A stretch of 64,000 nucleotides of DNA, from NCBI GenBank assembly GCA_951406725.2, contig OX597814.1, forward strand, positions 162,564,001 through 162,628,000. The letters are read 5' to 3'. This document shows, in pieces, positions 44,133 to 64,000 of this stretch. The notes beneath the pieces were generated by a model, which was not told the origin of the DNA, made no database searches, and worked only from the letters and a program-made list of their open reading frames with translations. This DNA comes from Octopus vulgaris. Its lineage: Eukaryota. Position numbers and translations under genes: made by a program. Positions within the stretch are counted from its first letter, which is position 1, and each line of letters begins with the position of its first letter.

Positions 44133-44474
44133 TTTGTGTATATAAACGCATACATACGTTCTTATGTATGTATTTTCTTCTTCAAGTTGCTTATTCAAGG
44201 CGGATTGTTATTCATCAAAAAACTTATGGGTCGTTGATAGCTGACGGCATCCATGTCCTGAGATTACCTCTACTCTCAAGACCGAGAGGGGAGGTGATCT
44301 TTGTTAAAAACATTCAGGTGCCCCAAACGCAGAAATACACAGGGACCGACTTGACCACACACACACACACACACACATAAATACAATATATATACATACA
44401 ATATATATACATATATATATAAATACAGTATATATACATACAGACATACACACCATATATATATATATGTATGA

Positions 44475-44516
<42 letters not shown>

Positions 44517-44584
44517 TCATACATATATATATACTCATATATATATATATATAAATATATATACAATATATATACCCATGATAC

Positions 44585-45140
44585 CTCTTTCCAAGTGCAC
44601 AAAATGCAGACGACTGGCTGGATGGATCATGAGAACGTTCAGAACCAGAGAAAAAGAAATCACGATGGTCCTCTGGAGGACATTCGTCCTCAGCTACCTG
44701 GATTACTGCTCCCAGCTGTGGTCACCCTACAGTGTAAAATTAACAGTGGCCCTTGAAGCAATCCAGCGAATCTTCACAAAGAAGATCGTCTCATTGCAAC
44801 AGCTCAGCAACTGGGAAAGGCTGAAACAGCTAAGACTCTACTCCTTGGAGTGAAGGCGGGAGAGGTATGCAGTAATATACATCTGGAAGATCCTGGAAGG
44901 AATTGTGCCAACTTTTGGCATTGAAAGCTACACCAATGCCAGAATGGGCCGACACTGCACAGTGCCAAAGATGCCAGCAATGCCATCGCGCTTCAAGCAG
45001 TTACTGTAACAACATGGGTTTTAGAGGCCCACAGCTTTTTTAATATTCTGAGGAAATGCACAAAGTAGATGTAGATAAACCTACTTCCCGGCAAGTAGTG
45101 CAAATGAGAGTAGCGACATCAAACTCCATTCTTCATCAAG
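44585..45140 (+). pseudogene. CR1-group LINE ORF2 3' fragment
   Basis: [51 protein letters not shown]. Confidence 0.85.
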
Positions 45141-48992: not shown

Positions 48993-49748
48993 CTATGTAT
49001 ATTTCCTATTTAGTATTGGGGAGGTTTCATTTATAAGGATGTACTGCCGTATTTGTCTGAGTGTTGGGTCTTTTGGGTGCTTGGATAAGATGCGGATGTC
49101 AAGTTGGCCCAAGTTGCTTTCATGGTGGTCTTTGGCATGTTGATAGAGTATGGAGGACTGTTTTTTGTCGTTATATTGTCTAAGATGTTCATTTAGTTGT
49201 TCCGCAATGCTCCTAGATGTGTCCCCTATGTATGTCATGTTCATGTCTTTACAAGCACCTTCTGTGCACCTTATGCTGTAAACTACATTTCGAGTGCTAC
49301 AATTAATGCCAGGGCTAATCCTACATACCATGCAGTTATCATTGGTGCATATGGTATTCTCAAAGGGGTACGTTCTACATAGTTGTGATCTGACGGAGTT
49401 CCCTGGCTTGTCAACAATCTTAATGTTAAGTTTGGTCTCCTTTAGAAGTTTTCTAAATCTACGGGCTAGTTCCCCATGGGCTGTGGCCTCTACAAACATC
49501 ACTCCTTGATATTTGTCGGTTTTATACCACGTGTTCGCCCTGTTTGCTTTGTCACAAGTTCTTTGTATCCTATTCCATTCTTTGTTTCTATATCTAGGGC
49601 AGGTACCACTGATATCATTATGTATAATGTTGTCTAATTTCTTTCTAGCCCCAACCCCTACCCCTGTATACTCGAACCCTATCTTTCTGATCATATCCAG
49701 AGAACTGCATGTGGTGCATGAAGTTCTGTATATGGTTTTTCGTTTCAA
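48993..49748 (-). pseudogene. Penelope-like C-terminal fragment: RT thumb/linker, Cys-rich linker and GIY-YIG endonuclease
   Basis: VMFVEAT..GELA, C..C..C..C linker, NVVYSIRC..TYIGDTSRS..LNEH, LYQHAKDHH. Confidence 0.85.
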
Positions 49749-49814
49749 AGGGTGAGTGCGTTAGATTATAAAGCAAAGAAGAAAATGACTCTCCCCAGAC
49801 ACAACAGAATATTG

Positions 49815-50130
49815 GCACTCCGTCGGCTACGACGACGTGTGTTCCAGCTGATTGGATCAACCGAACAATCTGCTCGTGAAATTAACGTGCAAGTGGCTAA
49901 GCATTCCACAGACGTGTCCACCACTTAACGTAGTTCTGAAGGAGATTCAGCATGACACAGAATGTGACAAAGCTGGTACTTTGAAATAAAGGTACTACTC
50001 ATTTTTGCCAGTTGAGTGGACTGGAGCAACGCGAAATAAAGTATCTTGTGAAGGTCACAAAGCGAGCCGGGAATCGAACTCACGACCTTACGCGCGTGAA
50101 CCGATTACCCTAACCACTAAACCATGCGTA
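49815..50130 (-). mobile_element. SINE family C
   Basis: Homologous to 5013-5330. Confidence 0.8.
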
Positions 50131-50557
50131 TATTCACATATAGGGACATAAGTTGTAGGTGCACAAGAGGTGTTGTGATATCACCTTTGGGCGACATTGA
50201 GATGATGCATAGGTATACCTGGCTGAAGTACATGGCATAATGGTTAAGAAGTTTACTTCGCAATCACAATATTTCGGGTTCGATCCTACTGCGTAACATC
50301 AAGTATCTTTTCGCATGCTCTCGAGTTGAACCAAGCCTTTCCCTTTGCCTTCTTCAGGCAGGTGGAATTTGAACTCGGAATGTAGAGAGACGGAAGATAT
50401 ATCCTAAAGCATTTCTGCCGATGCAGCAACGATTTTGCTACTTTTTCAGTTGCAGAGCAACGTGAAATGAGGTGTTTTTCTCAAGAATACAACGCGTCAC
50501 TCGATCCAGGAATTGAACGCATGATCTAACGACCGTGAGTACAACACCTTGACCACA

Positions 50558-51322
50558 GGTGCAGGACAATTCAGCACTACCGACTTAACACCGCCGACTC
50601 GACGCCAGGACAACTCAACACCGAGACAACTCTTCACCAGGAAAGTTGATTAACAAATAATATATTCGTTTTATAACTTTATTTTTTAAATAACATTATC
50701 AAGTATTTATAAAAGATTAATTTAATACATGACATAAATTTTAAAATTCGAATAAAAGTAACTATATATTTTTAATACAAGGCTAAAATTTAAATGAGAA
50801 ACTTCCTGAAAGTTGTAAGCAATTTCCTTCAAATAGTTTATGGGAGATCTTTCTGAAAGAGGTGAAACAATATGCAGAATTCTATCATCTACCTTCATAT
50901 ACTTCTTCAGTTTAGGGTGAATGGGGATGACCTCCAGTCAGTGGCTCAAAAAATGCACTTCGGTTTCTTTGCACCTTACGTAGCTCCTTTATGGATCTTC
51001 ATATTGTTGGAGTGCTCCATTCCCACGTCTATTCCAGAACGCGCGCGCGCACGCACACATAATTATATGCTCTATAAATTACTTTTATTCGAATTTTAAA
51101 AGTTCTGCTTTTTTTTTTATTCAAAACATGTATTAAGATTAACCTTTTTATAAATTTCCGATAATGTTATAAAACGAATAAATTATTTATTAATCAATTT
51201 TCCTGGTGTTATCTTGGTGTTGAGTCGTCCTGGCGCTGAGTCGGCGGTGTTGAGTCGGCGGTGTTGAGTTGGCGGTGATGAGTTGGCAGTGGTGAGTTGG
51301 CGGTGGTGAATTGTCCTGGGCC
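50558..51322. mobile_element. Non-autonomous Mutator/MULE-like element with ~200-bp TIRs
   Basis: Long inverted arms caggacaattc.. and ..gaattgtcctgg with 14-bp subrepeats ggcggtgttgagty. Internal minus-strand peptide KKYMKVDDRILHIV..INYLKEIAYNF resembles a MULE transposase C-terminus. Confidence 0.7.
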
Positions 51323-52015
51323 TTAGAATGTATCCATTCTACATGTGTACATATCAGGGGTCAATAAAGTTCTTATATTATTGGTCACTTCATGGGATCG
51401 TTGATATCTTTTGTATCATTACCGCTTTTTAAGAAGAAATATTTAAAGAAATTTTTGTGAAATATGTTTTGTGAATACTAGGCATGACATCGATATTTGG
51501 TTGAAAATTAATAAATTCTAACATTAAATTACTAAGCTCTTTCAGATTCAGTTCGTTAATAATTCAGCACCCTTAATGCTCAAAATTATTTCAGGTATTT
51601 TTCGATCCTATGGATAGCCACATAGACCCCTCCGGAAATCAACATTGACCACTTTGCCGGCTCCTGGCTTTGTAGTTAGAGTATTGGGCTTTCATCCTTT
51701 GGGTTGTGGGTTCAATTCCTGAACTGGGCTACACATTTGTCCTTCATATTACGTGACACTACATTTTACGTGGTTTCAATTAGCTCATCTGAAAATGCGT
51801 ACCAGCAACAGCTGGTTGGAGGAATAAATCCTGCGAAGGACTGGCGATCCTATGTACTCCAAGTCGCTTAAACGCCCCAGAAACAGAGATAATCTCCTGT
51901 CGAAAGGATCTCTCGGCTCGAGACAAACTCAAACATTTTAAACTCTGTATAGGCATATGAATGTATTTCGCTGTTGTTCCATCCTGTGTCATATCTGAGC
52001 AGAACTATGAATCTA

Positions 52016-52070
<55 letters not shown>

Positions 52071-52859
52071 ATGAATCGGAAACTTAGTGTGTGTGTATAT
52101 CACCGAATACCAGTTGAAGTAGGTACACAACAACGGATTAGGTTACTATTTTATTTTGAAGATCTGGTGTTTCAAGATGGTTATGTGATCGTCTACCAAA
52201 CAATTACCGCACAACATACAAGTATTCCCGAATGAAAGGCGTGTTAAGATGATGCAATTTATAATATTATAATAAAAAGATTATCTAAATCTGCTTCGTT
52301 CTGCTCTCGGAGATGGATACACACACACATCCACATATACATATACATGTATATGTGTGTGGGTGTGTGTATAAATGTACGAATCCATATTAACATATAA
52401 AGACATATATATTCATGAATACGTAATATTTTGTGTGTGTGTATGTGTGTGTGTGTGTGTCTGTGTGTGTAACCCAGTTGTCTCTAGATAAAATATTATT
52501 AGATTCAGTAATAAACTTCGCTGACCCTCCCTGAAATTGGAAACACAAACTTTGGAAAAATGGGTTAATTTGCAATGCCAATCTTTTCTTTATTAGTGCT
52601 ACTATAATGATGACACTTCCATTATCGTTGCAAATATTATAACTGTTATGATATATTACTAATACTATGACTAGTATGTGGGTGATATCACTATATTAGT
52701 TATATATCTAACACGATAGAGTCGACTCTGGTTTTACACCTCAACTTATTAAGTATTAAGAGATATCCATTAACGGAAAAACGACATTGTTGATTTGAGA
52801 TACGGGAGATTATTATTGTATGTATGTGTGTGTGTGTGTATTGAATTGTGGGTATATCT

Positions 52860-53250
52860 TGCAGTATTTCTTCCGGTTCTTTACGCTCCGAGTTCAAATC
52901 ATGAAGACGGCAACTTTTGTCCCTCTGAGCTCGATAAAAATTACCAGTGGAGAACGGGGGTCGATACAATTAATTTACCTGCTCTCTTAAAAATAATTGC
53001 TAGCCTTGTGCCAAAGTTACGCAGGATTATGATTATCTTAAAAAGCGGCAAGTTGGCAAAAGCGTCAGCGTGCCGGATAAAAAGCTTAGCATTTTCTCTG
53101 GCTCTATGTTCTGAGTTCGAATGATTGCGGAGGTCTACTTTGATCCCATCCTTTCGGTTATAAGTACCAGTCGAATACTGAAATCAAGGTAAGCGATTAT
53201 TTCCCTTTCCTCAAAATTTCTGGCCTTGTGCTAAAATTAGAAAGAAATTA
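52860..53250 (+). mobile_element. Two degenerate SINE family B copies
   Basis: Family B motifs gagttcaaat and taagtaccagt. Confidence 0.6.
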
Positions 53251-53895
53251 CTGTTATTGTTGTTGATGTTGTATGTCGCTGATTGTTCGAGCGAACCAAC
53301 TTCTTTCTCAAGGCTCCTGCGAAAATGTAGTTTTTAAGCGGAGTATCTAATTGAAAAATGCTTTGTTCTAGTTTTATGAATAGAAAGGTCTGGGATTGTC
53401 TGAGGGACCCATCTCTTCACCAGCGGTAGAAAGGTCCAGTCCTCCAAAATTTTAACTGTTTATTTCTGTCGTTGGTTTTATATTGCAAGATGGTCGCCTT
53501 GGACGTAAGATGAGGTGTTTGTTATAGCCTCAATAACGCTATCAAGACTCACTCTCCAATTATTTCAAACACGAAACAAAATCTAAAAATAGTATGAAAA
53601 AAATAATATGACAGAGACACAACTTACGGTTAAATAATCGAAATAATAAAATATGGTGTTTGAAATATTAATTTAAATGTGAAAATAAAAAGCATGAACA
53701 GTACAAACATCAATGTTGAACATCGCCAACAGCAACATTTCAATTTCTGCAAGTGTTGTAGATGTAAAAAAGCTCTTCGATATGAGCCATGTCAAAGAAA
53801 AGGAGAAGGTATGAACAAAGGAATGTGGAGGGAGACAGTAATTTCTTGTTTGAAACATTCAAATACACCCCAGAAAAATACTAAAGATATTTACA

Positions 53896-54040
53896 TGTGG
53901 TAAGAAGCTTGCTTCCCAGTCACATAGTTCCGGGTTCAGTCCTACTGCGTGGCGTCTTCGGCAAGTGTCGTCTATTACAGATTCGGGCTTACCAAAGACT
54001 TCTGAGTTGATTTGGTAGACGGAAACTGAAAGAAGCTTTT

Positions 54041-54085
<45 letters not shown>

Positions 54086-54310
54086 CTGTCTGTGTTTGGT
54101 CCCCACCACCGCTTGACAACCGTCCTTGGAATGTTAATGTCCCCGTAACTTAGCTGTGCGGCAAAAAGTGACAGATAAAATAAGTACCAGGCTTAATAAA
54201 ATATAAGTACTGGGATCGATTTATTTGACGAAAATTTCTTCAAGGGGTTGTCTCAGCATGGCTGCAGTCAATTGATTGAAACAGGCAGAGGATAAAAGGT
54301 AAAAGAAGAT
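53896..54310 (+). mobile_element. SINE family A
   Basis: Homologous to 18799-19240. Confidence 0.8.
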
Positions 54311-54567
54311 ATTGTTTTTCAAACAATGAAAGTGGTTTCCACATCCTCTCGAAAGGAAAGCAGTGAGAAGCTCTGGTTAGTGTGTGGTAGGACGTGAGGT
54401 CCCACGACAGAAGCAACGGGAAATTGAATAGTGTTTGAAACCTAGGACAAGTTTACGAAGCATGCACCACACGGGCCTTACAGGCCAGTGCGACAATTAG
54501 GGCAGGTACCAAAACATTTGACATTTTATTTATGCCACATAATAATAATAATAATAATAATGATAAA

Positions 54568-55105
54568 GGCGGCGAGCTAGCAGAATTGTTAGCACGCTAG
54601 GCAAAATGCTTAGCGGTATTTCGTCTGCCGTTACGTTCTGAGTTCAAATTCCACCTTTCATCCTTTCGAGGTCGATAAATTAAGTACCAGTTACACACTG
54701 GGGGTCGATATAATCGACTTAATCCGTCTGTCTGTCCTTGTTTGTCTCCTCTGTGTTTAGCCACTCGTGGGTAGTAAAGAAATAGGTATTTCGTCTACCA
54801 CTACGTTCTGTGTTCAAAATCCACCGAGGATGACTTTGCCTTCCATCCTTTCGGGGTCGATGTTATCGAATTACGCCTTCACAACAAATTTCAGGCCTTG
54901 TGCCTATAATAGAAAGGATTATTATTATTCTTCTTATTATTAAGGCGGCGATCTGGTAGAATCGTTAACACGCTGGACGAAATGCTTAGCCGTATTTCGT
55001 CCGTCGCTACGTTCTGAGTTCAAATTCCGCCGAATTCGACTTTACCTTTCATCCTTTCGGGGTCGATAGAATAAGTACCAGTTGAACACTGGGGTCGATG
55101 TAATA
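54568..55105 (+). mobile_element. SINE family B cluster (composite plus a further copy)
   Basis: ggcggcgagc-type heads at 54568 and ~54943, restart at 54785. Confidence 0.8.
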
Positions 55106-55515
55106 GAGAAAAGAGGAAGATATGAAAGGGAGGGAGAGAGATGGAAAAAGAGCAAGATATGGAAGAGAGAAGGCTAGAGGTAGATGCAAAGACAGACAAA
55201 TAGAGAGAGGAGCGGGGTCAATAACTAAAAAATCACTTCAGGTAGAGCAATAGACCGGTGACATATTTAGAGCTTTGACGGTGTATTATGGCCTGTCTGT
55301 TCCAAAGTGCTTGCGTTCTGACTACGATGTCGTAAGCGACTTGAGTTTCATTGCTTTCCTTTTTGAGAAAATTCTTGGCGAAGAGGTTGAGATTTGCACG
55401 TGCACCTACAAGTCACATATATGAAGGCTACCCAGGCTTTTGAGATGAGATCAGTCGAAGTGCTAGAAATAACGCACTACTCAGCATATAAAAAGTCTTT
55501 CTCTCCCTCTCTCTG

Positions 55516-55555
<40 letters not shown>

Positions 55556-55607
55556 GAAATGTGTCCTTTGCAAGCAAGATGTACTGGACGTCAATTCAGT
55601 GCACAAG

Positions 55608-55736
<129 letters not shown>

Positions 55737-55944
55737 CATATATATGTATATATATACATATATATGCATATATATGTATATATATGTATATATATATATG
55801 CATATATATATACATATATATGCATATATATACACATATATGCATATATATACACATATATATGCATATATATACATACATATATATATATATGCGTAGA
55901 TATATACATATATATGCATATATATATGCCTTCTTATTCGTCGC

Positions 55945-56400
55945 CCTTTTCAAGCGTAGCCAGGCTCATGGGCCCGATTTCCCGGTTTCTGTGGCGTATG
56001 TGTTCCCCCCAGCTAGACGGGACGCCAGTGCATCAGAGGGTTACTCAAGAAAGAGGAGAGAGTGAGAGAAATTTGTGGCGAAAGAGTACAACAGGGGTCG
56101 CTACCACCCCCTGCCAGAATCTCGTGGAGCCTTTAGTTGTTTTCGCTCAATAAACACACACAACGCCCGATCTGGGAATCGAAACCGCGATCCTCCGACT
56201 GCGAGTCCGCTGCCCAAAACACTGGGTCATTGCGCCTCCACTAATAAATAAATGCACCCGTTTAAAGCCTAGCCAGGCTCATGGGCCCGGTTTCCCGGTT
56301 TCAATGCCGTATGTGTTCTCCAGCTAGAACGTCGCCGGTGCAGGAATCGAAACCTCAATCTTACGAACATGATACTGACACCCTAAACACTAAGCCTCCA
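55945..56400 (-). mobile_element. Two adjacent tRNA-derived SINEs sharing a tail
   Basis: agccaggctcatgggccc repeated. Minus-strand heads with ggtttcgattcc B box. Confidence 0.65.
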
Positions 56401-57448: not shown

Positions 57449-58089
57449 GCTTGTTCGAAGGTTATATGGATACAGTTTGTGTATCAAATAGCTAACTTAA
57501 GGCGATAGCCTCATGGAGCTAATAAGCGGACAGCTTTTTTCTTATTTTTATAAGAATGCCATATTAGTATGGCGATAACTATTATTTTCCGGGAACGCTG
57601 CCGCTGTTCTCTTTTAGAGAGACTTAGTTATTTTAATATTTCTATTATTGAAAACAAGTGGATGTATTCCACCGAAACTAGGTAAATAAAACCATCGAAC
57701 AGAGATTGTCGGAAGCGACACCTACTGGCTGGCTACGCTGCATTGAAAAGGGGCAATACTCCGAAACGCGTCTGTAGCTGCCGGTCAAGTAGTGTGGAGC
57801 GACTGACCTCCCTTGTTCGAAGGTTATATGGATACAGTTTGTGTATCAAATAGCTAACTTAAGGCGATAGCCTCATGGAGCTAATAAGCGGACAGCTTTT
57901 TTCTTATTTTTATAAGAATGCCATATTAGTATGGCGATAACTATTATTTTCCGGGAACGCTGCCGCTGTTCTCTTTTAGAGAGACTTAGTTATTTTAATA
58001 TTTCTATTATTGAAAACAAGTGGATGTATTCCACCGAAACTAGGTAAATAAAACCATCGAACAGAGATTGTCGGAAGCGACACCTACTG
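57449..58089 (+). repeat. 362-bp tandem repeat (retrozyme-like), upstream part, ~1.8 units
   Basis: ttgttcgaagg at 57451 and 57813, ggaagcgaca at 57711 and 58073: period 362, copies essentially identical. Starts directly after a TA-rich microsatellite. Confidence 0.95.
57737..57778 (+). ncRNA. Minimal type I hammerhead ribozyme, U3/A8 variant
   Basis: Stem I gctgca/tgtagc, core TTGAAAA, stem II gggg-caata-ctcc, GAAA, palindromic stem III acgcgt, predicted cleavage after GTC at 57772. Confidence 0.85.
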
Positions 58090-58306
58090 ATTTTTCCTTG
58101 GATTACGTCGGATTATTTTACGCTGTAAGCTGTTATGTTAGTTCGTTCTGTTCTGGATTTACACGTACAATTTTTGGAGTATTAACTTGTGAAACAAAGT
58201 AATTTTCGCCCTTCGGGGTAGAAAATTTCTTTTTATATATGAACTTTAATTCAGTGTGGATTTAATTTTTATCTTGTCTCTTGTGACAAGTCACTTGCAT
58301 TTTATT

Positions 58307-59782
58307 ATGGATCTTGACTTAACGTCAAATTCTGATTTTCCCGAGATGGGAGAAGTTATAAAGCAAAAGGATACAAAGGAGAAACAAAGTTTTTCGGAAG
58401 CCGTTGGAGGCAATGTTATAGAACTGGAAGTAACAATGGCGGATCTCTTCAAGTTCAGAAAGTTCATACAAAGGAATGGAGAAGAAACGAGAATAATACC
58501 GCCCCTGACACCTTACAAGCAATCCGTGAGAAGACGGTAATTTATAAGGTATATAATATTAAGGAAAAAAAGATTGCAGATGTAAGAAATGAATTGGTAG
58601 AACGGTGCATGGCACCAATTTGGAACAAGGTTCGCTATGTTGGCCGAGGAGTGAGAAGCGCTACTATTGAAGCGCAATTCGAGTCGGCTAGCATAGCGAA
58701 GGAAATTTCAACTCAAACGTTGAAGAGTGCAGACATCCTGTTGCTGCCCACGTACTTAGGGCGCAGAACAGCTAAGATAACAATAGAGGATATACCAACA
58801 GGTTACGATGTAATGTGGGCAGCAACAGCGGTCGTATTCGACGTAGAAGAGAAATTAAACATTTTAAACATGAGGATGAAAGAGGCAAAATTTTGGAAAG
58901 GTCAGCAGCTTGAAATGATCGTTCAAGCTGACAATGCAACGCTGGAGAGTTTGCCAGACAGGGTCTTCGTGGGGGATGGACACACTGCGCGGGTATCGGT
59001 TGAGGGACGTAGGCCCAGATGTTTCAAATGTGGGCAGAAGGGTCACGTCCGCTCAGAGTGCAAAAAGAAAAAACCCGTTAATGCCCCCATTCAAACCGCT
59101 GTGGAGAACAAAGCAGACATCACAGCAACAACTAAAGAGAATACCCGGAAAAAGCAAAATGAAAGTCAAAAGGAGGAAAAGAAAATGAATGGAAAACAAA
59201 ACGAAAACGAGGTGGAAAATATTTTATCAAATGGAAAAGAACTGGAAGTAATGGAATATACGACTGTAACCAACAAAAGGAAGAAATCCAATACCCCGGA
59301 CTCCCCACCCCAAACAAAAAGAAAAACAAACGCAGAAGAACAACACAAAAAAATTATCCAATCCCACCCCGCTGGCACTACTTTTGTAGGCCAGCATTTC
59401 ATTAAACCCCAGCCCCCAACTTTAAAAGGATTCAAAAAAAACCGATAGGTGCATTGCTTATAACACAAAAAACGAGAGAGTAGTTTGGTACATAAAGGCG
59501 AAACCAAACATAAAATGTTTCAAATCATCGGAAAAAAACCCGGATTGGAGGTATGCGAAGGTTGGAGAGGAGGAATGGAAGGAGAGACTCTTCCAACTAC
59601 ACGTGAGGGACAACCTGATTAAAGATGTCACACAAGAGGTGATAGCTGGAAAATTGAATATTAGCCCGGCAGCCACTCCATCCCAGAGCCCGGTGGCAAC
59701 GCCGATTAAATGCCCAGCAACAACGGAGAGTGTGGGGGAGGCAGGCAGACAAAAGCTGCCATGCTCCCTCTCACAACCGTAA
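58307..59782 (+). CDS. ORF1 (gag-like, CCHC zinc knuckle), interrupted by two apparent frameshifts
   Basis: ATG at 58307 (MDLDLTSNS..). Middle segment (track ORF 58594-59448) contains CFKCGQKGHVRSEC. After the A8 run at ~59434-59441 another frame stays open to TAA 59780-59782, just before ORF2. Confidence 0.75.
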
Positions 59783-59806
59783 GTAACAAACTTTCTTCAT
59801 TCATCG

Positions 59807-62800
59807 ATGATTAAGTTGGGCTGTATAAATGTGCGTGGAATGGGGTCGAAATGGAAACAGGCTTGCTTGCTGGACGACCTCAGGACACACAGAATAGATG
59901 TAGCCATTGTCACCGAGTCCAAGATGAGAGGAACCCAAGCGTTCTCGCATCTTCTCAATGGTTACGAGAAATTTATTTCTCCTAGCCGAGGAGGAAGTGC
60001 AGGCGTGGCAGTCCTTATCAGGAAGAACTTGGACTTACAGGTAAGTACTGTCTTTATGGACCCAGAAGGTAGGCTGGTTGTCCTCGATGTAACTCACGTA
60101 AGTAAGCAGTCCTTCAGGTTGGTAGCTGTTTATGCTCCTAATGAGGGTAGGCAGACTGGTTTTTATCGGAACTTGGAGCACTTTCTAGTGACGTCTAAAA
60201 CGGTAGTATTGGTAGGGGATTTCAACACTATCATCGATGCGCGGATAGATAGTGTGGGCTCGTCTGATAGAAGGGGGAATCCTTGCCTTAAGGGTCTACT
60301 GACGAGCTTTAATCTAGTAGATCGGTTTCGAATGGATGAGCCGAGCATTCCACAGTGGACGTGGAGTAACAATGACGGCTCACGCAGATCGTATATAGAT
60401 AGGGTATTTGTTAAAGAACGAGATAGGAATAGCATTAGCTGTCCACAATTTTGTATTGTGCCTTACACGGATCACAAATTAGTGACGTGTGAGGTACATG
60501 TAGATAAATGCCATAGACAGGGACCCGGATACTGGAAAATGAACAAGTCTATTTTGGCTTGTGAAGCTTTCCGTAACCGGATTATGGAATTAGTCCAGAG
60601 GGCATTATGTGGAACCATCATTAATAATAGATGGTGGATCGCCCTCAAAAGAGCCATCCGTTTGGAGTCCATTAGATTTAGCAACCAGCTAAGTTTAGAT
60701 AGGACTAGAATAGAGGGCGATTTAGTTAAGAACTTAGACGAGGCAATGGGATCTGGCTGTGCATCTAGAGTGTTAGCAGAGAGAACGATCTTGTACCGTC
60801 ACCTCAATGCCAAGCATGAAGGATGTAGAGTCAGAGCTAAGCTACGTGCAGTGAAACGAGAAGGTATTAATGTTGCCGGATGGGCACGTCGTGTGGAGAG
60901 TCAGAAGGGCAAAAAGTCCTCTATTAAGTCTTTAACTGACGAACAGGGACGCAAAATCTATGGACAGGAGGAGATACAGAAGGTCTTTCAACAGCATTTC
61001 GCTCGGTTGTTTGGGGAGGGCGATCCACTCGAGCGAGGGGAGGACTTACAGAACTTCCTAGCTGGTGGGCCTCGGCTCTCGCCAAGCAGAGCGGAACGCT
61101 GTGAAGGACCGATTACTCCCGCGGAGGTAAGAGGGGTTTTGGCTGAATGCGCCCGGGAAAAGTCGCCGGGACTGGATGGTCTGCCCTATGAGTTTTATTG
61201 TTGTATGCCGGACTTGTTCGGGGACATACTGGCAAGCGTCTACGCAAACTGGCAACAGAATGGGAGGATTCCCAGTTCTGTGAGCCGGGGAGTTGTGACG
61301 CTGATCCAGAAAGACCCGAGCAAGGGGGATAATATTAGTAATTATAGGCCCATAACTCTACTTAATGTAGAGTTAAAGATTTTGGCCAAGGTGTTAGCAG
61401 AAAGGTTGAAGGTCGTCATGGAAAAACTTGTCGGAAAGGCACAGACATGTGCAATCCCAGGCAGGTCGATCGAAGATAATCTTCACCTTCTACGCTACAC
61501 TATAGACAGGGTTGGGCAATTAGCCGGCAAAGGAGGGGCATTGGTCCATTTAGACCAAAGTAAAGCATTTGATAGGGTAGATCATCAGTACCTGGCGACG
61601 GTTCTCGAAGCGGCTGGGCTAGGTCCTGACTTTCGCGGGTGGATATCAGCTATGTACAGCGGTATCAAGTCCACAGTCCAGATAAACGGTTACTTAACGG
61701 AACCGTTTTCGATTAAGCGTTCAGTTCGTCAAGGATGTCCCTTGTCCCCTCTCCTGTACGTTTTGGCTCTTGAGCCATTGCTGCGGAAGTTGGAGACGGT
61801 GAGATGCAATCCTAATGAAATCGGATGCGGTAAGTCTGTTTCTGCGTATGCGGATGACGTCACCTTCATCGTGTCCAACGAAGCACAACTAACTCGTGTA
61901 GAAGGTGCTCTCCGAAGATACGAAGCGGTGGCTGGGGCAAAAGTTAACAAGGACAAGTCCACTGGTTTGCGCCTCGGCACCTGGAGGAACAAGCCGATAT
62001 CGTCCAGTGTTGTTGGACACTGGACAGATGGTCCTGTTAAATTGCTTGGAGTTTGGTTTGGTTCAGACTCCCAGACGGAGAAAAATTGGAGCGAGGTAGT
62101 GACCAAGGTAGAAGCCATAGTTCGGGAGTGGTCCGGAAGGCATCTTTCCTTGAAAGGGAGGGCGGAGGTGGTACAGGTGTTTATAGCATCTGTAATCACC
62201 TATCGCCTGACTGTCGTGCCTTGCCCCGATTTGTGGCTAAGCAAGTTGGATCGACTCCTTTTCCGCTTTTTGTGGAAGGGAGGAAAGCCACTTGTAAGGC
62301 GCTCCGTGTGTTGCCAGGAACCACTAAAGGGTGGGCTGGGGATGCCTTGGTTAATGATGCGCAGGCATGCGCTGAGACTGAGACATCTCTGGTTTCACCT
62401 GGAAGGTGATAAGGTGTGGAGTCCGCTGGCAGATAATTTCTTCCCGCAACCGGACTCTATGGAGAGATTTAAACCCGGTTTCATTAAAAGACGGAACCTG
62501 ACTTTATGGCAGAAAGAGTGCCGACAGGCACTCTGGCTGATCCACAAGATAGGCAAAGCCGGCTGCGGGAATACCACCTCGACATTTTATAGAAGGATGG
62601 TAGAGGCAAAAAATGACGACGTCCTAAGAGGGTCTCTGGGGTTCGATGAGGATCAACTATCCGACCTGTTTAAGAAGACTTTCAAGCCGGGGTATTTGGA
62701 CAATTACCAAAAATCCCTGACTTGGCAGTGCTATAGGAATGCTCTACCTGTTCGCGATAAGTTATATAGGCATGGAATGTCAGTGCCACCGACATGTCCA

Positions 62801-63205
62801 AGATGTGGGTTGGACGATGAAACCGTCCAGCACGCTTTTGTACATTGTCAGGAGCTGTCAGGCTTAATAAGTTACGTAGAACACGTGTTGTCGCATCTGG
62901 GACGAGTACAGCTATCGGCTGGTTCTATAATAAAGATGATACCGCCAGCTGGACTCTCAAAGGAAGGTGAGGCTTGTTTTCACTGTACGGTGGCAGTACT
63001 GAAAGAGTGTGTGTGGAGAACTAGATTGGAAGGTTTGGTGTCAGGAACCTTTGTCTCTGGATATGGTATGTTAAAATACTTCAGATACCATCTAAAGAGC
63101 AAGATGGATTTAGAGAAGAGGAACCTGACACAGAAAAAGTATGTGAATCGATGGAAGGATGTGATAAAAAAGGTGGGTGTGAGTAACCCTGCTTGGTCAT
63201 CATGA
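59807..63205 (+). CDS. ORF2 polyprotein: apurinic-like endonuclease + reverse transcriptase + C-terminal Cys/His (zf-RVT-like) motif, Tx1-like
   Basis: Uninterrupted 1132 aa. APE motifs INVRG, VYAPN, GDFN, SYIDR, TDH. RT motifs KSPGLDG, NYRPITLLN, DQSKAFDRVDH, VRQGCPLSPLLY, YADD. C-terminal CPRC..ETVQHAFVHC. Confidence 0.96.
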   Translation: MIKLGCINVRGMGSKWKQACLLDDLRTHRIDVAIVTESKMRGTQAFSHLLNGYEKFISPSRGGSAGVAVLIRKNLDLQVSTVFMDPEGRLVVLDVTHVSKQSFRLVAVYAPNEGRQTGFYRNLEHFLVTSKTVVLVGDFNTIIDARIDSVGSSDRRGNPCLKGLLTSFNLVDRFRMDEPSIPQWTWSNNDGSRRSYIDRVFVKERDRNSISCPQFCIVPYTDHKLVTCEVHVDKCHRQGPGYWKMNKSILACEAFRNRIMELVQRALCGTIINNRWWIALKRAIRLESIRFSNQLSLDRTRIEGDLVKNLDEAMGSGCASRVLAERTILYRHLNAKHEGCRVRAKLRAVKREGINVAGWARRVESQKGKKSSIKSLTDEQGRKIYGQEEIQKVFQQHFARLFGEGDPLERGEDLQNFLAGGPRLSPSRAERCEGPITPAEVRGVLAECAREKSPGLDGLPYEFYCCMPDLFGDILASVYANWQQNGRIPSSVSRGVVTLIQKDPSKGDNISNYRPITLLNVELKILAKVLAERLKVVMEKLVGKAQTCAIPGRSIEDNLHLLRYTIDRVGQLAGKGGALVHLDQSKAFDRVDHQYLATVLEAAGLGPDFRGWISAMYSGIKSTVQINGYLTEPFSIKRSVRQGCPLSPLLYVLALEPLLRKLETVRCNPNEIGCGKSVSAYADDVTFIVSNEAQLTRVEGALRRYEAVAGAKVNKDKSTGLRLGTWRNKPISSSVVGHWTDGPVKLLGVWFGSDSQTEKNWSEVVTKVEAIVREWSGRHLSLKGRAEVVQVFIASVITYRLTVVPCPDLWLSKLDRLLFRFLWKGGKPLVRRSVCCQEPLKGGLGMPWLMMRRHALRLRHLWFHLEGDKVWSPLADNFFPQPDSMERFKPGFIKRRNLTLWQKECRQALWLIHKIGKAGCGNTTSTFYRRMVEAKNDDVLRGSLGFDEDQLSDLFKKTFKPGYLDNYQKSLTWQCYRNALPVRDKLYRHGMSVPPTCPRCGLDDETVQHAFVHCQELSGLISYVEHVLSHLGRVQLSAGSIIKMIPPAGLSKEGEACFHCTVAVLKECVWRTRLEGLVSGTFVSGYGMLKYFRYHLKSKMDLEKRNLTQKKYVNRWKDVIKKVGVSNPAWSS

Positions 63206-63442
63206 AGGGAGAAAATAGTCTCTGGGCTCTTAGGCTGTCGGGTAAGAATCCTGACTGTGATATACCTAGCTGGCCAAAATCATTTTTAATTTTTAAAAAA
63301 AAAGGAGAAAAGTAAAGTCTAGTATCATAATCAATAATCAACATATGTAAATATCAAACGAACAACGTAAACTTTTTGTAATTATGTTTTGTATTGTAAT
63401 GTACTATCTCTGTAAGATTTTTATAATCATAATAAAGATTTA

Positions 63443-64000
63443 GGAAGCGACACCTACTGGCTGGCTACGCTGCATTGAAAAGGGGCAATACCCCGAAACG
63501 CGTCTGTAGCTGCCGGTCAAGTAGTGTGGAGCGACTGACCTCCCTTGTTCGAAGGTTATATGGATACAGTTTGTGTATCAAATAGCTAACTTAAGGCGAT
63601 GGCCTCATGGAGCTAATAAGCGAACAGCTTTTTTCTTATTTTTATAAGAATGCCATATTAGTATGGCGATAACTATTAAAAGGGGCAATACTCCGAAACG
63701 CGTCTGTAGCTGCCGGTCAAGTAGTGTGGAGCGACTGACCTCCCTTGTTCGAAGGTTATATGGATACAGTTTGTGTATCAAATAGCTAACTTAAGGCGAT
63801 AGCCTCATGGAGCTAATAAGCGGACAGCTTTTTTCTTATTTTTATAAGAATGCCATATTAGTATGGCGATAACTATTATTTTCCGGGAACGCTGCCGCTG
63901 TTCTCTTTTAGAAGACTTAGTTATTTTAATATTTCTATTATTGAAAACAAGTGGATGTATTCCACCGAAACTAGGTAAATAAAACCATCGAACAGAGATT
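63443..64000 (+). repeat. 362-bp tandem repeat (retrozyme-like), downstream part, runs off the window; includes a 200-bp deleted unit
   Basis: Same unit sequence resumes at the TSD. aggggcaata at 63481 and 63681 (spacing 200, i.e. a 162-bp deletion). Confidence 0.95.
63469..63510 (+). ncRNA. Minimal type I hammerhead ribozyme, U3/A8 variant
   Basis: Same fold with perfect stem II gggg-caata-cccc. Predicted cleavage after 63504. Confidence 0.85.

Follow-up and report, generated by a model that had tools for sequence, protein, structure and literature searches.

Does a long interspersed nuclear element (LINE) that lies inside a tandem array of hammerhead ribozyme repeats occupy a true target, and how would it recognize that target? 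The question is raised by a 64,000-nucleotide stretch of the Octopus vulgaris genome (contig OX597814.1, positions 162,564,001–162,628,000 of the forward strand), hereafter the window, in which a Tx1-like retrotransposon of the kind that lacks long terminal repeats (non-LTR), 5353 bp in length (58090–63442, + strand) interrupts RZ1, a dispersed repeat family with a period of 362 bp. The element family is young, recently active and sequence-specific for one spot of the hammerhead repeat. The preferred reading, with a probability of about 0.7, is that the Tx1-like LINE is a parasite of a hammerhead retrozyme and inserts where the repeat's own small nuclear RNA (snRNA)-type promoter has its start.

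Structure of the element and of the interrupted repeat

The element is enclosed by two exact 17-bp target site duplications (TSDs), GGAAGCGACACCTACTG on the left (58073–58089, +) and GGAAGCGACACCTACTG on the right (63443–63459, +), and the right copy makes the downstream repeat unit whole again. Open reading frame 2 (ORF2; 59807–63205, +) is open and encodes 1132 residues that comprise an apurinic/apyrimidinic-type endonuclease (APE), a reverse transcriptase (RT) and a C-terminal zf-RVT domain, with domain matches to Exo_endo_phos, RVT_1 and zf-RVT. The closest named ORF2 homologue is from Argonauta hians (61% identity). An AATAAA motif is located 12 nt before the element end (63442), without poly(A) at the junction. 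The element is thus, as the first-pass annotation described it, a 5353-bp APE-RT element inside a 362-bp tandem repeat. The accompanying description of two ORFs holds for ORF2 and requires refinement for ORF1 (58307–59782, +), which encodes a CCHC zinc knuckle and comprises 493 residues in another copy (L069). In the window copy, ORF1 is spread over three frames by two 1-nt shifts near 58501 and 59434. ORF1 is open in six of the 16 other full-length or nearly full-length RZ1-type copies that were translated, and both shifts are missing from contigs of all four sequencing runs compared, so the shifts are probably assembly errors or private to the window copy. The repeat unit and the element are both covered in runs labelled as organisms B, C and D; contig X17 (58060–60377) crosses the 5′ junction with just 30 letters upstream, below a threshold of 31, and is not counted as a cross-species junction.

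The upstream RZ1 array (57450–58072, +) begins in a (TA)n tract and consists of a 5′-truncated unit (unit positions 102–362) followed by one full 362-bp unit. The downstream array (63443–64000, +) starts with a variant piece (unit positions 1–236) that is joined to unit position 36, and it runs past the window for ∼7 further units before entering (TA)n. The variant piece carries three differences from the neighbouring units and terminates at a hot spot for the ends of array arms.

Type I hammerhead cores are found upstream of the element (57737–57778, +; predicted cut after 57772; extended stem I at ∼57718–57797) and downstream of it (63469–63510, +; intact; predicted cut after 63504). Parsing against the consensus of the conserved core yields a 6-bp stem I (GCUGCA/UGUAGC), the core UUGAAAA, a 4-bp stem II (GGGG/CUCC), GAAA, a palindromic ACGCGU stem III and a GUC triplet, which places the predicted cut at unit position +62. 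The 3–8 pair of hammerheads is usually C3–G8. In RZ1, this pair is replaced by U3–A8, a published natural covariation (PMC4209133). Hammerheads with small palindromic stems III work as dimers (PMC4209133), and the palindromic stem III of RZ1 predicts that cleavage depends on dimerization. As the first-pass annotation described, the TSD overlaps the extended stem I in its 5′ arm; the hammerhead region folds better than all 200 shuffles (z = −3.7), and the monomer folds better than 100 of 100 shuffles. Genome-wide, the core pattern is matched exactly 939 times, versus none for a reversed control. No Rfam hammerhead model matched RZ1, either at the gathering threshold or at E ≤ 10. Identities of the unit as an snRNA, 5S, tRNA or twister were also considered and gave no Rfam or ARAGORN match. 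By structure, RZ1 is a hammerhead retrozyme with predicted self-cleavage: it forms dispersed, short, non-coding tandem units with a type I hammerhead in each, and its size and arrangement are in line with those of non-LTR retrozymes (PMC7229834).

Recurrent insertion at one nucleotide of the repeat

The flanks of 3′ ends were tabulated genome-wide, and they are not the unrelated, random flanks expected of a chance insertion. Of 30 loci examined with a 3′-end query, the 20 best share a single junction nucleotide in the unit, which the remaining 10 (84–97% identical) do not have. An exact 22-nt tail pattern has 28 genome matches, 21 of which are at the RZ1 site (16 loci). The flanks at the remaining seven begin with ATAC or ATAT, one being the +1 position of a real U1 gene, and those of the seven that were placed in the ORF2 tree are older relatives. 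Full-length 5′ junctions are identical in 16/16 copies, and the 17-bp TSD is present in 12/12 RZ1 rows. Five copies that are 5′-truncated at different element positions (128, 3104, 3302, 4659 and 5284) all terminate at the RZ1 site. The proposed specialization on retrozyme arrays is thus borne out by 21/28 exact 3′ ends and five independent truncations, and chance insertion is ruled out by these 3′ ends and the core-pattern census.

The RZ1 insertions are mutually independent. In a hitchhiking test taken from PMC4494074, several loci carry private variants on both flanks that are missing at other loci. The L068 element is within 0.1% of the youngest copies and has a full TSD, yet it resides in an older variant of the unit. 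Three copies are arranged TSD to TSD without an intervening unit. In one region (L064–L067; G000:C2:73.04–73.07 Mb), five elements stand in a row, with three pairs separated by the TSD alone.

A predicted snRNA-type start at the insertion site

The upstream DNA of 40 snRNA genes (15 U1, 18 U2 and 7 U5) was compared with the RZ1 unit. ATCAGT, located at −55 to −61, is the most widespread 6-mer in 18 dereplicated snRNA rows. A matrix was built from 14 snRNA rows of this genome (U1/U2/U5) alone; the motif had been spotted by eye in the snRNA and retrozyme sets before the matrix test. The best matrix site falls at −55 to −61 in 37/40 snRNA rows, a count that is circular for the 14 training rows. 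In the window, the matrix identifies an element like the proximal sequence element (PSE) at 58012–58027 (+), whose core lies 57 nt upstream of the insertion. This site (matrix score 9.3) is the top of 724 unit positions, and its score is reached by 15 of 5000 shuffles. The best site lies between −62 and −53 in 20/21 retrozyme rows (equivalent to about three families that are independent of one another) and in none of five off-target sites. The insertion site apparently coincides with a predicted snRNA-type promoter start. The first-pass annotation mentions neither this coincidence nor the insertions of sister subfamilies at other hammerhead repeats, U1 and U2. With the start site deduced from the matrix result, the left TSD equals the predicted first 17 nt of a promoter-driven transcript (RNA head). 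Newt satellite 2, which is also a hammerhead repeat, reportedly has a promoter of the snRNA type (Coats 1994, as cited in PMC2220036). As further observations on the snRNA set, the U1, U2 and U5 genes (L165–L204) also have an AT-rich TATA-like stretch near −30, and three snRNA rows without ATCAGT look like retrocopies.

Sister subfamilies, other targets and relic heads

Relatives with 82–85% nucleotide identity insert into two other hammerhead repeats, RZB and RZ2, 25–33 nt upstream of the hammerhead core, which is the same position of the repeat as in RZ1; others insert within 3 nt of the U2 +1 position. RZ1, RZ2 and RZB have no mutual BLAST similarity. A hammerhead parses in 21/22 flanks, and stem I has at least 6 bp in 19/22, with differing sequences that keep the pairing. 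The RZB pattern has 1389 genome matches. In one sister lineage, 24 exact 3′ ends were sorted by flank: 16 join an RZB hammerhead unit, three the start-site TSD of RZB followed by another element, four U2 and one another sequence; L061 and three tandem rows among these ends were classed by eye. Separately, a TGACCTCCCTT motif 3′ of the hammerhead (57803–57814) is common to RZ1 and RZB despite the lack of BLAST similarity between the units.

In a 45-row ORF2 tree, the RZ1 clade (support 100/98) is nested in a U1/ATAC lineage (100/100), and U2-inserted copies sit among RZB copies at distances of ≤0.3%; target switches are thus repeated and recent. The genome contains a ladder of near-identical copies, 0.1–8% apart, with different targets. 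The 21 ends of the RZ1 clade include no junction with U1, U2, U5 or any other retrozyme.

The relic 5′ heads of some copies begin exactly at the +1 position of a former host. In four U2-inserted copies, the TSD corresponds to U2 −3 to +14 and is followed by a 14-nt RZB-type head that begins at the ATCG of the unit. This head lacks the three upstream TSD bases, as expected for an RNA 5′ end. The L080 copy carries a head of U1 nucleotides 1–17 at a non-U1 site. From the matrix site at snRNA spacing, the sister targets and the relic heads, it appears that start sites of the snRNA type are what the lineage targets and that it borrows their promoter; the start-site rule that would unify the targets rests on motifs and junctions.

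Several loci have composite structures. L080:1401–8178 is a full element with its U1 head between two inverted U2 genes. A sister Tx1 remnant joined to a decayed RZB hammerhead unit (L061:4746–6480) lies ∼2 kb past the array of the window. Two full elements that are 99.5% alike are arranged head to head, one per arm of an inverted RZB array (L138–L139; G000:C4:124.12–124.14 Mb), and a U1 gene cluster contains nested Tx1 fragments of mixed ages (L081–L086; G000:C18:49.0 Mb).

Proposed insertion mechanism

As seen in the junctions, insertion is precise to one nucleotide and generates the 17-bp TSD, with the predicted promoter left on the upstream side of the element and an entire hammerhead following it. 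The distance of 57 nt between the PSE-like motif and the site matches the +1 spacing of U1, U2 and U5 genes. In the proposed mechanism, the host promoter would transcribe the element, and the RNA would open with the first 14–17 nt of the host transcript. It would continue past the element end into the target, and its 3′ end would be made either through cleavage downstream of AATAAA or through hammerhead action at +62. The APE domain would nick the DNA at the start site, where the target-like tail would pair with the primer strand. Reverse transcription would begin internally and leave no poly(A), since AATAAA lies 12 nt from the element end yet no junction has poly(A), unlike those of Keno-type relatives. 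The head would anneal to the second nick and give many precise full-length copies; in contrast, six of the seven off-target older-lineage copies fetched whole (L080 and L087–L092) are truncated. A rare insertion at another PSE-driven start would become a new master with new flanks, which would account for the changes of target between U1, U2 and the three hammerhead repeats. Spread of the retrozyme would depend on other, Penelope-type machinery.

The RZ1 branch has gained two endonuclease changes, M25R and L83M (counted from 59810), both outside the hairpin loop, a structure that has been linked to specificity (PMC1919474). RZ1, U1-head, RZ2 and a single RZB row, with four different targets, have an identical loop, and a loop with one change is found in three RZB/U2 rows. 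Because just two endonuclease residues changed in the switch from a U1-type target to the retrozyme, RNA flanks may help steer targeting, and co-transcription of the target can strengthen targeting (PMC4494074). In the most far-reaching form of this idea, specificity would be inherited largely via RNA: the host promoter would give a target-identical head, the host hammerhead would cut a target-identical, DNA-pairing 3′ tail, and one insertion at a new snRNA-type start would reprogram the family with an unchanged endonuclease. This form is tentative and somewhat unlikely. An AlphaFold model was too weak for use, with a predicted local distance difference test score of 61 that fell under 50 in the hairpin loop.

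Several observations weigh against start-site parasitism or its RNA-based steps. The PSE match of RZ1 is imperfect (score 9.3; ACAAGT versus ATCAGT), and the TSD register is not constant, being +1 to +17 in RZ1, RZ2 and U1 heads and −3 to +14 in the RZB/U2 sublineage. The RZ2 core is atypical, with U4C and a U–U pair at its close, and decay is seen in several RZB copies. Many loci have a single hammerhead downstream, although stem III needs a dimer. Protein changes extend beyond the endonuclease, with eight in ORF1 and several in the RT and further on; outside RZ1, the closest copies that have an endonuclease are decayed and differ by 4–5%, so a protein cause of the switch is possible. RZ1 copies have no relic U1 head, and a U1-likeness of the RZ1 target, plausible by eye, was rejected as the cause of the switch, given that 536/3000 shuffles were as good and the target is not the best window of the unit; neither a relic head nor likeness to U1 thus accounts for the founding RZ1 insertion. 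Heads could also arise by template switching to abundant small RNAs (PMC4494074).

Alternative explanations of targeting

The alternative that survives best is that the endonuclease alone sets the target. The APE would read ∼10 bp of DNA, as in Tx1L, and be switched by a few residues, and the promoter link would arise since copies at start sites get transcribed. The Tx1L, TRAS1 and R1Bm endonucleases recognize specific sequences (PMC1919474), the off-target sites of the older lineage have ATAC/ATAT in common without a PSE, and the RZB/U2 sublineage shows ∼20 or more endonuclease differences, the loop change in three rows and a shifted nick. However, a change from ATAC to (A/G)GAAG is large for two derived residues outside the hairpin loop, the loop is identical across the four targets, and junctions that lack poly(A) despite AATAAA imply internal initiation. 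Targeting by the endonuclease alone is a serious possibility, short of even odds.

Alternatively, ORF1 or ORF2 could bind PSE-bound SNAPc, and the endonuclease would cut at a fixed distance. Such tethering would suit insertions 54–61 nt from the PSE core in unrelated sequences and nearly identical elements in both RZB and U2. It is nevertheless improbable, as 0/21 RZ1-clade ends are at U1, U2, U5 or another retrozyme and 0/5 off-target sites have a PSE.

The retrozyme machinery could also have copied one or a few insertions as passengers in composite RNAs. Consistent with such hitchhiking, 16/21 copies are full length, the truncated element at L063 joins the opposite arm via a 7-bp microhomology, as ordinary arm junctions do, the first downstream piece in the window is a different variant that ends at the arm-end hot spot, and the two head-to-head copies at one sister locus are 99.5% alike. 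L063 and the window's own downstream piece may be passenger cases. As a general explanation, hitchhiking is quite improbable in view of the varied truncations with their own TSDs, the TSD-to-TSD tandems, the young L068 element in an older unit variant and the locus-private variants on both flanks, which are not common between loci.

Spread of the retrozyme

Co-location and the youth and dispersal of both families might suggest that the LINE mobilizes the retrozyme in trans, but this idea is largely refuted by the array junctions: in 10/10 sampled element-free two-armed arrays, one arm ends at unit positions 234–241 and the other at 295–300, and 16/20 arm ends enter long (TA)n, none with a LINE tail or start-site TSD. 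Of the two roles raised by the first-pass annotation, parasite of the array is supported, and RT supplier is contradicted by array ends that are Penelope-type and located in (TA)n, unlike the tail and TSD of the LINE.

The arrays end in (TA)n at two internal CTAT(TAT) sites, with the arms inverted. Penelope-like elements are likewise described as having truncated arms in inverted orientation, a tail on one side and a bias towards microsatellites (PMC8557442). An inverted 5′-truncated arm, a one-sided tail and a microsatellite target are all found in RZ1 arrays, although the extra sequence on one arm is ∼60 nt versus 30–40 nt for Penelope-like elements (PMC8557442). A Penelope origin of retrozymes has been proposed (bioRxiv 10.64898/2026.07.22.740005). 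To judge from its array ends, the retrozyme is probably spread by Penelope-type machinery.

Classification of the element

The element has an L1-group architecture, with a CCHC ORF1 and an ORF2 that combines APE, RT and a zinc finger. The best solved relative of ORF2 is human L1 ORF2 (E = 5e-66, versus 4e-23 for R2). In a midpoint-rooted RT tree of 39 rows without named references, the element clade (100/99) is sister to a clade (98/96) that contains metagenomic elements whose junctions are with U2, near nt 37, or with 5S rRNA. The U2 junction near nt 37 is the Keno-type site (PMC4640811). Tx1 membership is likely, indirectly, because the sister clade carries this junction, and the element shows the Tx1 trait of sequence-specific insertion with a fixed TSD; the earlier Tx1 label is thus retained as likely, with the RT tree holding no named Tx1 references. 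The Keno 3′ junction at ∼nt 37–39 of U2 was not found: the RZ1 clade never joins U2, and its sisters join U2 at −3/+1.

Distant metagenomic relatives (L225–L228, L237, L241, L242, L247, L263 and L274) have U2- or U1-derived 5′ sequences and Keno-type U2 or 5S rRNA junctions, and one relative of the L225–L274 set ends in a U1 gene. No hammerhead-like motif was found in 80 metagenome loci of distant relatives (24–44% identity), 40 of which were covered by the Rfam scan. The nearest relatives after the octopod ones have 39–54% identical proteins (P0002–P0072 and P0220), and a cuttlefish protein groups with these and not with the window element.

Comparison with known systems

Xenopus Tx1L and crocodilian Tx1-Mar are likewise two-ORF APE-RT LINEs at a fixed site in a mobile repeat, and some Tx1-Mar copies have U1/U2-derived heads as observed here (PMC4494074). 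Their targets are DNA transposons (PMC4494074), whereas the present target is a hammerhead retroelement with a predicted snRNA-type start. Keno has a related RT and, like the present lineage, sits downstream of an snRNA promoter. It joins U2 near nt 37–39 with poly(A) (PMC4640811, PMC4494074), in contrast to the present lineage, which inserts at or ≤3 nt from the start, without poly(A) and mostly into retrozymes. R2 and R1 in 28S rDNA also borrow the host promoter, with co-transcribed flanks that aid targeting; the R2 RNA is processed by an R2-encoded 5′ ribozyme (PMC4494074), whereas here any processing would take place at the 3′ end, through the ribozyme of the interrupted repeat. Non-LTR retrozymes and newt satellite 2 resemble RZ1 in their 170–400-nt tandem type I hammerhead units, low GC content and Penelope-type spread (PMC7229834; bioRxiv 10.64898/2026.07.22.740005; PMC2220036). 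RZ1 differs from the known retrozymes in its U3–A8 core, its PSE-like element at snRNA spacing and its mollusc-type genome.

Tx1 families are known to target transposons, satellites, U2, U5 and 5S, and heads derived from U1/U2 have likewise been described (PMC4494074, PMC8869645). A paper on octopus repeats reports active L1-Tx1 and Penelope families, and the words ribozyme and snRNA are absent from it (PMC13282606). The first-pass annotation did not recognize this target class as described; likewise, no LINE that targets hammerhead retrozymes was found in the literature searched, outside of which lie Repbase and most subscription papers, although a target marked 'Sat' in Fig. 3 of PMC4494074 could be a satellite with a hammerhead. 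The hammerhead retrozyme is a real and well-supported class of target, new for an already known type of element.

Other features of the window

An open frame of 254 residues is located at 48993–49760 (−), with no Pfam match at E 0.01 and no hammerhead-like motif nearby; by its motif, it resembles the GIY-YIG end of a Penelope-like element. Another open frame occupies 44308–44853 (+), and its end is similar in appearance to the C-terminal part of a LINE ORF. Short dispersed repeat families (D9, D10, D12, D15 and D18) at 50070–56396 look like remnants of short interspersed nuclear elements, with no tRNA detected by ARAGORN.

Implications

Known targets of sequence-specific LINEs include rRNA, tRNA, snRNA, microsatellite and DNA transposon sequences, to which this element would add a hammerhead retrozyme. 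The junctions predict the transcription start of retrozymes and would extend the snRNA-type promoter of newt satellite 2 to a distant phylum. The ladder of near-identical, differently targeted elements makes the question of retargeting by endonuclease or by RNA flanks directly testable. If inheritance through RNA is true, the lineage would be a naturally retargetable, ribozyme-assisted LINE that hops among U1, U2 and several retrozymes, and an element whose RNA flanks steer insertion would be a candidate chassis for site-specific integration.

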